From an uncultured Candidatus Actinomarinales bacterium (GTDB taxonomy: Bacteria; Actinomycetota; Acidimicrobiia; Actinomarinales; Actinomarinaceae), in contig CALSSQ010000001.1 in NCBI GenBank assembly GCA_943789065.1, forward strand, positions 188,619-252,618: 64,000 nt of DNA, written 5' to 3'. The notes under the pieces are model-generated. The model had not been told where the DNA came from. It searched no databases and was given only the letters and a program-made list of their open reading frames with translations. Shown here one piece after another: positions 27,969 through 29,629 of the stretch. Numbering within the stretch: position 1 is the first letter of the stretch; each line of letters starts with the position of its first letter. A program made the position numbers and the translations under genes.

Positions 27969-29629
27969 TGGATCATTTCTTCAATTACCTATTCATAGTA
28001 ATTCTCAACATTTTTGCACTTTTACTTGTATTGAAAATCAGGAGAAATAAACAAAATAGTAATGATGTAATAACTGAAGCAATGATTGTTGAGGGTAATC
28101 CAAATCCAAAAAAGAATAGAAGGTCATCTAATTTTTTCAACAATCAAAAAAGCAGCAATGTATTTGTAGAGTATGAAGATTTAGACATAGGCAACTCAGA
28201 ACTTATCTATGATGGTCAACTTTTAGATCTAGCTGTTGAGAAAAAAATTGTCACAAAAAAAGGAAACTGGTATTTATACGGCGATGTAAAGCTTGGGTAT
28301 GGAAAAGATAAAGCAAAGTTTTATTTGTTGGAAAATACAATACTTGCAGATGAGATTAGCAGCTTAGTTTATAGTGCTATAGATGTAAAACTTCAACAAC
28401 AAAGATACGACTTACATAATTTAGACAATTCTGATTTAGTCAACACAAAAACACAAATTTATTCACTTAATTCTCTCCAAAACCAACAATCACTTGGAGC
28501 GATTAACCAACAGTTGGAGATTGAATTATCTGAAATATACGTAAAATCAAATACACTTAAAAAAGTTCTTGAAAATACTTTAGGTACTGAAGTCATGGTA
28601 AGTATTGATATTAGTGAAAGATTCAACCCTTTAATTACTGATCAGGAAAAGTATGCAAGTGATATTGTTTTAATGTTAAAAGAAGTGGACTATCTAATAT
28701 CAGCAGTAAGCAATATATCAAAAAATGCTAAATATTTAGATATCAAAGTTACAGATCAGATGCTTAGGGAGAAGCTAAATTTGATGACTTCCAATCTGTT
28801 TTCAATTGTATTCACTAAAAAGCCAGTTCAAAAACATAAAAACTTTGCAAAATTAAGCTTCGATGAACCTATAAAAAAAAAGCGTAATACTGGGCAGGGA
28901 AGACCCCATAAACAGATAAGCCGTAATAATCTTAAACAAAAGCCACTTGTACCCTTCGGTGCAGCTCTTTTATTAGTAGGTTTATTTATTGTTGCTTATT
29001 CAGTCAATCAAACTTTTTTCTCAACTTCAGTAATTAACGACGAGCAAAAATTATTAGAAAATCAATTTGTAGTCAACAATACAAAACTCAGTGATTTAAG
29101 AAACAAAAATTTGATTGTTGAAGGTTCAGTAGAAAACTTGGAACAAATAGACGAATTTCAAGAATCTTTTATTTCTATAGCAACTAAAACTCTTACTAAT
29201 CAGGCTGCCAAAGCCAAATTTCTTCCTGATGTAGTTGGCAGGCTTACACTTTTATCAGCAGATCTAAACCATTATGTAGTGTTTGGCGCTACAAATAAAA
29301 AATTAGAGTATGGACCCGGCTATATATTAGGTACATCTTTACCTGGTTCTGGTGGAAACTTTGGAATAGCTGGTCATCGAACTACTTATGGAGCTCCCTT
29401 TGGAAACCTGGATCGAGTAGAGATTGGTGATGATATTTTGTTTCAGACAAACTCAAACGAATTTAAATACAAAGTTGTAGAAGTAAAAATAGTTTCACCT
29501 GAAGAAAATTTTGTTCTTGGAAGCTTTGGTGATGACAGAATAACATTAACAACTTGCCACCCAAAATTTTCAGCTAAACAAAGATTGATTGTAATTGGTA
29601 AATTAGAAAAGGTAAAGGTATTCGGGTAA
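27968..29629 (+). CDS. Sortase (class E-like) with two TMs and an enlarged cytoplasmic region containing a RecA C-terminal-like domain
   Basis: GNFGIAGHRTTYGAPF (His 29375-29377), ITLTTCHPKFSAKQRLIV (Cys 29555-29557). TGATG overlap with the giant gene and TAATG overlap with the next gene. Confidence 0.92.
   Translation: MDHFFNYLFIVILNIFALLLVLKIRRNKQNSNDVITEAMIVEGNPNPKKNRRSSNFFNNQKSSNVFVEYEDLDIGNSELIYDGQLLDLAVEKKIVTKKGNWYLYGDVKLGYGKDKAKFYLLENTILADEISSLVYSAIDVKLQQQRYDLHNLDNSDLVNTKTQIYSLNSLQNQQSLGAINQQLEIELSEIYVKSNTLKKVLENTLGTEVMVSIDISERFNPLITDQEKYASDIVLMLKEVDYLISAVSNISKNAKYLDIKVTDQMLREKLNLMTSNLFSIVFTKKPVQKHKNFAKLSFDEPIKKKRNTGQGRPHKQISRNNLKQKPLVPFGAALLLVGLFIVAYSVNQTFFSTSVINDEQKLLENQFVVNNTKLSDLRNKNLIVEGSVENLEQIDEFQESFISIATKTLTNQAAKAKFLPDVVGRLTLLSADLNHYVVFGATNKKLEYGPGYILGTSLPGSGGNFGIAGHRTTYGAPFGNLDRVEIGDDILFQTNSNEFKYKVVEVKIVSPEENFVLGSFGDDRITLTTCHPKFSAKQRLIVIGKLEKVKVFG

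Follow-up and report, generated by a model that had tools for sequence, protein, structure and literature searches.

Sortase 3, which is encoded in the 64,000-nucleotide stretch of DNA analysed here (the window), carries a genuine RecA C-terminal domain (CTD, referred to as RecA_C) at residues 80–140. The domain was captured without the RecA ATPase core and lies in the cytoplasmic loop of the protein. The probability of this reading was put at about 0.97. The gene and the domain are located as follows:

27968–29629, forward strand: sortase 3 gene, 553 aa (ORF, Pfam/NCBIfam, alignments, hydropathy)
28205–28387, forward strand: RecA C-terminal domain, residues 80–140, equivalent to E. coli RecA ~269–329 (Pfam, phmmer, Foldseek, dN/dS)

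The Pfam model RecA_C (PF21096) matched residues 83–137 of the protein over model positions 1–55 of 57. The score was 59.9 bits (E 2.7e-16) against a gathering score of 27 bits, and the isolated 91-aa piece reached 65.1 bits. The peptide GQLLDLAVEKKIVTKKGNWYLYGDVKLGYGKDKAKFYLLENTILADEI corresponds to residues 83–130 of the sortase 3 ORF (28214–28357), and over these residues the HMMER alignment to E. coli RecA contained 21 identities in 48 positions (44%). Furthermore, the TIGR02012 recA model matched sortase 3 solely at model positions 265–319, with 37.6 bits versus a cut-off of 325.3. When the 91-aa piece was compared with all PDB sequences by phmmer, only RecA chains were found, always through their C-terminal domain, and 1aa3, the isolated E. 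coli RecA CTD, was among them. The first-pass annotation had proposed a RecA C-terminal domain at 28205–28375 with ~40% identity to E. coli RecA and no ATPase core. The significant profile match and the RecA-only PDB matches confirmed the domain, and the identity proved slightly higher than estimated. The lack of the core was also borne out, as the Pfam search of the protein gave no PF00154 match and the RecA queries of the window and eight related loci matched only the sortase segment. Neither a RecA core nor a recA gene was found in the window or in these loci. Because it has no ATPase core, sortase 3 is not a RecA.

The full-length AlphaFold2 (AF2) model of sortase 3 was poor, with a mean pLDDT of 46, and the RecA_C segment was its best-predicted part, with means of 10-residue blocks of up to 82. 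The model of the cytoplasmic region alone (residues 62–300) had a mean pLDDT of 60. The pLDDT of the RecA_C domain was moderate (~50–82), and its predicted secondary structure followed the order helix, three strands, two helices. In the Foldseek comparison of the cytoplasmic-region model with the PDB, all 50 listed matches were RecA structures, which superposed over 52–57 residues with an rmsd of 1.0–1.3 Å and 35–47% identity. The modest E-values (~1e-2) reflect the small size of the aligned piece and the presence of a second domain in the query.

In the alignment with a profile built from 52 RecA tails, the match to the sortases began at residue 80. It did not extend into the linker at residues 25–79, where no RecA-derived sequence was detected, and a RecA-like acidic tail was absent from the linker at residues 141–180. 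Accordingly, what was captured is the globular CTD alone (E. coli ~269–329). The idea that the segment FVEYEDL (residues 66–72) is what remains of the last strand of the RecA core (AEFDIMY) was rejected, since the RecA-tail profile starts at residue 80. Compared with the RecA CTD (E. coli 270–335, PF21096, 1aa3), the sortase domain has the same fold order, with 44% identity to E. coli RecA and at most 58% to the closest RecA found. It differs from the RecA CTD in having no ATPase core, no N-terminal oligomerisation helix and no acidic tail, and in being membrane-tethered. As neither the core nor the oligomerisation helix is attached, it cannot form a RecA filament.

Architecture of sortase 3 and its gene cassette

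The order of segments in sortase 3 is TM1, linker, RecA_C, linker, shared cytoplasmic domain, basic linker, TM2, stalk and sortase domain. Besides RecA_C, the following segments were delimited:

27974–28039, forward strand: TM1, residues ~3–24, a reverse signal anchor followed by KIRRNK (hydropathy, charge)
28040–28204, forward strand: linker 1, residues 25–79, poorly conserved (45% mean pairwise identity, dN/dS 0.52)
28388–28507, forward strand: variable linker 2, residues 141–180 (32% mean identity, net charge −1)
28508–28837, forward strand: cytoplasmic domain common to sortases 1, 2 and 3, residues 181–290 (alignment)
28838–28942, forward strand: basic linker before TM2 (segment 291–328, net charge +9)
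28943–29017, forward strand: TM2, residues ~326–350 (hydropathy)
29258–29605, forward strand: sortase catalytic domain, Pfam residues 431–546 (PF04203, 96.3 bits versus a cut-off of 26.6)

Only two hydrophobic segments were found by hydropathy, at residues ~3–24 and 326–350. TM1 has no basic residue ahead of it and KIRRNK behind it, and TM2 is preceded by the linker of net charge +9. The catalytic domain has to be on the wall side, and this, together with the positive-inside rule, places residues 25–325 in the cytoplasm. The same features agree with the earlier proposal that RecA_C is situated between TM1 and the shared cytoplasmic domain. It begins ~55 residues after TM1 and stands between variable linkers. 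Among five orthologs, the mean pairwise identity was 72% for RecA_C and 74% for the shared cytoplasmic domain, and 45%, 32% and 34% for the linkers.

The shared cytoplasmic domain was modelled by AF2 as helix, strand, long helix, helix and strand, with a pLDDT of 70–83. It had no match in Pfam or NCBIfam, and the 50 listed Foldseek matches included no fold other than RecA. The same domain was also observed at window positions 2690–3090 and 9370–9700, in sortases 1 and 2.

In the catalytic domain, H470, C530 and R539 were invariant among paralogs and orthologs in the alignment. Class E sortases occur in Actinobacteria, for example SrtE1 and SrtE2 of Streptomyces, and their substrates carry an LAxTG-type sorting signal. 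The best NCBIfam sortase class for sortase 3 was class E (NF033747), with 109.3 bits, which is below the cut-off of 160. Sortase 3 resembles class E in this best catalytic-domain score, in the invariant His-Cys-Arg and in the adjacency of its gene to that of the substrate. However, it differs in the score itself (109 versus 160 bits), in its two TM helices around a cytoplasmic loop of ~300 residues, and in carrying RecA_C. As to the sorting signal, its neighbour has LPVTG ([LFI][PA]xTG in orthologs), which would be a further difference from the LAxTG of class E, and cassette 2 has LAATG. Judged by its sequence, sortase 3 is a predicted sortase that is closest to class E but below the cut-off, with an atypical two-TM plan.

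The other members of the cassette are:

16012–16626, forward strand: TetR-family regulator, at the head of the cassette
16716–27968, forward strand: giant surface protein, 3750 aa, the presumed substrate
29629–31253, forward strand: multi-TM protein
31243–32121, forward strand: Thr-stalked 292-aa protein, the last in the cassette (gene order kept in related loci L005 and L006)

The C-terminus of the giant surface protein consists of LPVTG, a hydrophobic helix and RKAYRF, and the ATG of sortase 3 overlaps the TGA of its gene. The orthologous loci had the same arrangement, with a giant protein of >3300 aa upstream of the sortase. Their gene order was giant protein, sortase (its start overlapping the stop), multi-TM protein, stalked protein, SBF transporter and rho. 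The sorting motif of the substrate differed between these loci, being LPVTG in the window (27870–27968) and FPRTG, FAPTG, FARTG or IPFTG elsewhere. The short cytoplasmic tail R[KR]xYR[FY] at its extreme C-terminus was kept across the orthologous loci (L001, L004–L007). The multi-TM gene after sortase 3 is one ORF of 518–532 aa in L005 and L006 and is split in the window. In the tblastn search with the L005 protein, the match ended at 30630 in frame 1 and resumed at 30618 in frame 3, a switch that indicates a frameshift near 30618–30630, either real or an assembly error.

Conserved residues, selection and possible role of the domain

The columns of 30 distinct sortase-type domains were compared with those of 147 RecA CTDs (sortase 3 residue + 189 = E. 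coli residue). In the sortase type, G83 (E. coli 272), D87 (276), K97 (286), G99 (288), W101 (290), Y104 (293), G110 (299), G112 (301), K113 (302) and K117 (306) were invariant. K93 (E. coli K282, nearly invariant) and K108 (E. coli K297) were also kept. Thus, among the family-conserved E. coli positions G272, D276, K286, G288, W290, Y293, G299, Q300, G301 and K/R302, Q300 alone was not retained. This residue, which is Gln in 97% of the RecA domains, was replaced by Tyr111 in 97% of the sortase type. Furthermore, lysines were gained at S287 (Lys98) and N304 (Lys115), and hydrophobic residues occupied exposed RecA positions, namely S292 (Leu103), Q307 (Phe118) and K/R310 (Leu121). E320 was changed to Ser131. 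As a result of these fixed substitutions, the surface of RecA_C is more basic and more hydrophobic in the sortase type.

The dN/dS of RecA_C, computed against the closest ortholog, was 0.046 and was the lowest in the sortase 3 gene. The values for the shared cytoplasmic domain, the sortase domain and the linkers were 0.067, 0.165 and 0.47–0.61, respectively. In addition, the four strain variants inside RecA_C in eight runs were all synonymous. Purifying selection acts more strongly on RecA_C than on the catalytic domain, and the low dN/dS and the synonymous-only strain variants show that RecA_C is clearly functional.

We infer that RecA_C serves to bind a ligand in the cytoplasm. This would most likely be a polyanion, first of all dsDNA, and the contact would be made through the retained lysines K93, K97, K108 and K113 together with the added K98 and K115. 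The CTD lysines K286 and K302 are well conserved in RecA, and strand exchange is impeded when they are mutated (PMC4666392, citing Kurumizaka 1996 and Aihara 1997). Docking and MD work has them, along with K280 and K282, in salt bridges with the phosphates of dsDNA (PMC4666392). The gateway model of the RecA CTD for dsDNA has been restated (PMC10954442), and the acidic C-terminal tail of RecA inhibits DNA binding (PMC13076628). In our analysis, the equivalents of K286 and K302 were invariant, that of K282 was nearly so, and the acidic inhibitory tail was absent, all of which favours contact with DNA. On the other hand, the net charge of the isolated domain is 0 and Q300 is replaced by Tyr, which speaks against it. 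The retention of the lysines might also be structural, because the retained residues are at the same time the most conserved ones of the fold. Moreover, Leu, Phe and Leu at the positions of S292, Q307 and K/R310 point to a newly formed hydrophobic interface instead of one for DNA. Taking both sides together, dsDNA or another polyanion is a tentative candidate ligand, to which somewhat less than an even chance is given. No DNA-related gene was found in the cassette (TetR regulator, giant substrate, sortase, multi-TM protein and stalked protein), and nothing in the neighbourhood or cassette of sortase 3 pointed to DNA uptake.

If DNA is bound, the membrane-tethered RecA_C could hold the sortase beside the nucleoid. 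The 11-kb substrate gene would be transcribed and translated, and its product exported, at the nucleoid side, and the sortase would thereby be placed where the giant substrate emerges. Such a tether from the membrane to the chromosome or to RecA filaments, which would couple the anchoring of the 3750-aa surface fibre to the nucleoid, is a possible but rather doubtful reading, at roughly three chances in ten. The first-pass suggestion that the domain might tether the sortase to DNA, anionic lipid or RecA filaments, and so connect surface display with the nucleoid or with DNA uptake, would at most be compatible with the data. If the tether to the nucleoid is true, this would be the first sortase to read a cytoplasmic DNA-related cue, in one of the smallest free-living cells, and the first RecA CTD to work outside recombination.

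The change of Q300 to Tyr and the hydrophobic changes would fit a new protein interface or a new membrane interface equally well. In the latter case, RecA_C at the inner leaflet would bind PG or cardiolipin and steer the sortase to polar or septal lipid microdomains. Poles and septa are the sites of wall synthesis and secretion. The sortase-type changes add K98 and K115 plus the exposed Y111, L103, F118 and L121, and surfaces that bind at an interface typically combine lysines with hydrophobic and aromatic residues in this way. In addition, only ~55 residues separate the domain from TM1. Furthermore, RecA assemblies were reported to associate with the anionic phospholipids of the inner membrane (PMC6363387, citing Rajendram 2015), but the passage of PMC6363387 concerned does not assign this association to the CTD. 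The domain has a net charge of 0 and no evident amphipathic helix, and sortases 1 and 2 manage without it. With these points against it, binding to lipid is unlikely.

It is just as improbable that the domain serves for protein docking, either by binding the partners of the RecA CTD, by packing on its own shared cytoplasmic domain or by oligomerising. The candidate partners would be RecA filaments or bundles, regulators of the RecX/DinI type and repressors of the LexA/cI type. The new invariant hydrophobic surface residues would suit a protein interface, and the neighbouring shared domain is equally conserved. In addition, going by the titles of Galkin 2009 and VanLoock 2003, which are cited in PMC6363387 and PMC13076628, the RecA CTD has a role in repressor cleavage and regulator binding. 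However, no partner is encoded nearby, AF2 gave no confident interdomain packing (pTM 0.29–0.44), and the long variable linkers on both sides argue against a rigid intramolecular assembly.

A still weaker explanation is the chance capture of a small, stable domain that binds no ligand and persists only because it helps the loop to fold or gives it its length. The paralogous sortases 1 and 2 presumably function without the domain, which would agree with this. Nevertheless, an inert spacer is hard to reconcile with the lowest dN/dS in the gene (0.046), or with surface lysines that are invariant across orthologs only 51–54% identical overall. Drift or loss would also be expected in a streamlined genome of ~1 Mb. 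For these reasons, the chance of an inert spacer is set at little more than one in ten, and ligand binding by RecA_C, with dsDNA as the first candidate, is preferred.

Even within RecA, the role of the CTD (dsDNA gateway or docking of regulators) is still debated. The sortase domain is a natural core-free, membrane-tethered and strongly selected version of it in an abundant ocean bacterium, and it offers a clean system for asking what the isolated RecA CTD binds. As the domain has only ~60 residues and is easy to express, the key test is cheap despite the uncultured host. It also means that sortases can bear elaborate cytoplasmic modules, which implies that the anchoring of surface proteins may be positioned or regulated from inside the cell.

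Distribution of the architecture and integrity of the locus

When the 91-aa piece was searched exhaustively by phmmer, the 1.84 billion representative proteins yielded 1454 matches at E ≤1e-3, of which the best 150 were inspected. Among these 150, RecA_C without a RecA core occurred only in Actinomarina sortase-3 orthologs or their fragments (P0001, P0121–P0125, P0134). Several seeming non-RecA carriers of the domain proved to be RecA fragments with a core motif just upstream, and others were internal-Met tail calls or frameshifted chimeras. P0126 was an unrelated repeat protein. The remaining matches that were looked at were RecA proteins. Two further sortases are encoded in the window:

2597–3811: sortase 1, no RecA_C
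8441–10435: sortase 2, no RecA_C

The domain was absent from both, as had been noted from the DNA alone, and also from their 120 listed homologs, which carry PF04203 alone. Some of these homologs are named 'class E sortase [Candidatus Actinomarina sp.]' by NCBI. Since no other core-less carriers were present among the best 150 of the 1454 matches and the homologs of sortases 1 and 2 have PF04203 alone, the capture is specific to the Actinomarina sortase-3 lineage. In the literature searched, no description of a RecA_C-sortase architecture was found, nor any relevant work on sortases of Actinomarina, and neither sortase nor recA appears in the genome paper on the Actinomarinales. Within the best 150 of 1454 matches and the literature searched, RecA_C is unprecedented as an accessory domain of a sortase.

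Sortases 1 and 2 are like sortase 3 in their two-TM plan, the shared cytoplasmic domain and the logic of their cassettes, with 30–34% identity, and differ from it in lacking RecA_C. In sortase 2, the sorting-signal helix of a substrate stands in place of TM1. At window positions 8434–10435, the ORF of sortase 2 opens with the final part of a surface protein (Thr stalk, LAATG, TM helix and SRKK), which is fused in frame to the cytoplasmic domain of the sortase. The ORF upstream of it (4573–8436) stops at the TAG at 8434–8436, in another frame. In cassette 2, substrate and sortase thus appear fused, and a frame change interrupts the substrate gene.

The identical sortase 3 protein was recorded on 82 contigs. 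The first-pass annotation had called for a search for proteins combining the two domains and for a check of the read support. All 120 listed homologs (68–88% identical; ENA, JGI, NCBI, Tara and Logan) had precomputed matches to PF04203 and PF21096. The organism was assigned to Candidatus Actinomarina from genome contigs, and orthologs in MAGs and SAGs of Candidatus Actinomarina, at ~51–85% identity, shared the synteny. One of them, on a 1.0-Mb MAG contig, was 84% identical, and those in single-cell genomes were 64–68% and 51–52% identical. As for the support at the level of DNA, the assembled contigs of four independent metagenome studies tiled 27700–28900 without joints or loose ends. The contigs of four metatranscriptomes tiled the whole sortase 3 gene, although carry-over of DNA is possible, and the two sets together covered the junctions of the domain. 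The GC content was even across the locus (~30%). Among the inspected matches from the 1.84 billion representatives, the closest genuine RecA was 47–58% identical over 50–60 residues. An assembly chimera of the sortase gene with the genomic recA is therefore refuted, and its probability is negligible, as the same architecture recurs in independent assemblies, SAGs and MAGs at 51–100% identity, contigs from 8 runs tile the junctions, the closest RecA is only this distantly related, and the GC content is homogeneous.

One metatranscriptome piece of 424 bases included the last part of the giant gene and the start of the sortase gene and extended into RecA_C. Since this RNA contig spans both genes, sortase 3 is transcribed, probably jointly with its substrate, subject to the same possible carry-over of DNA.

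A unitig of 163 bases (window 28197–28359, most of the RecA_C coding sequence) was covered 2–3 times as deeply as its flanks in several of the DNA and RNA runs, and it differed at four synonymous sites. This stretch is apparently more common to co-occurring strains than the rest of the sortase 3 gene.

In the same island, a beta-propeller (SBBP repeat) protein is encoded on the reverse strand at window positions 13646–15820. It has an IF2_N Pfam match at residues 36–83, with 27.8 bits and a cut-off of 25.3, and this is a second small domain of an 'informational' protein on a surface or membrane protein.
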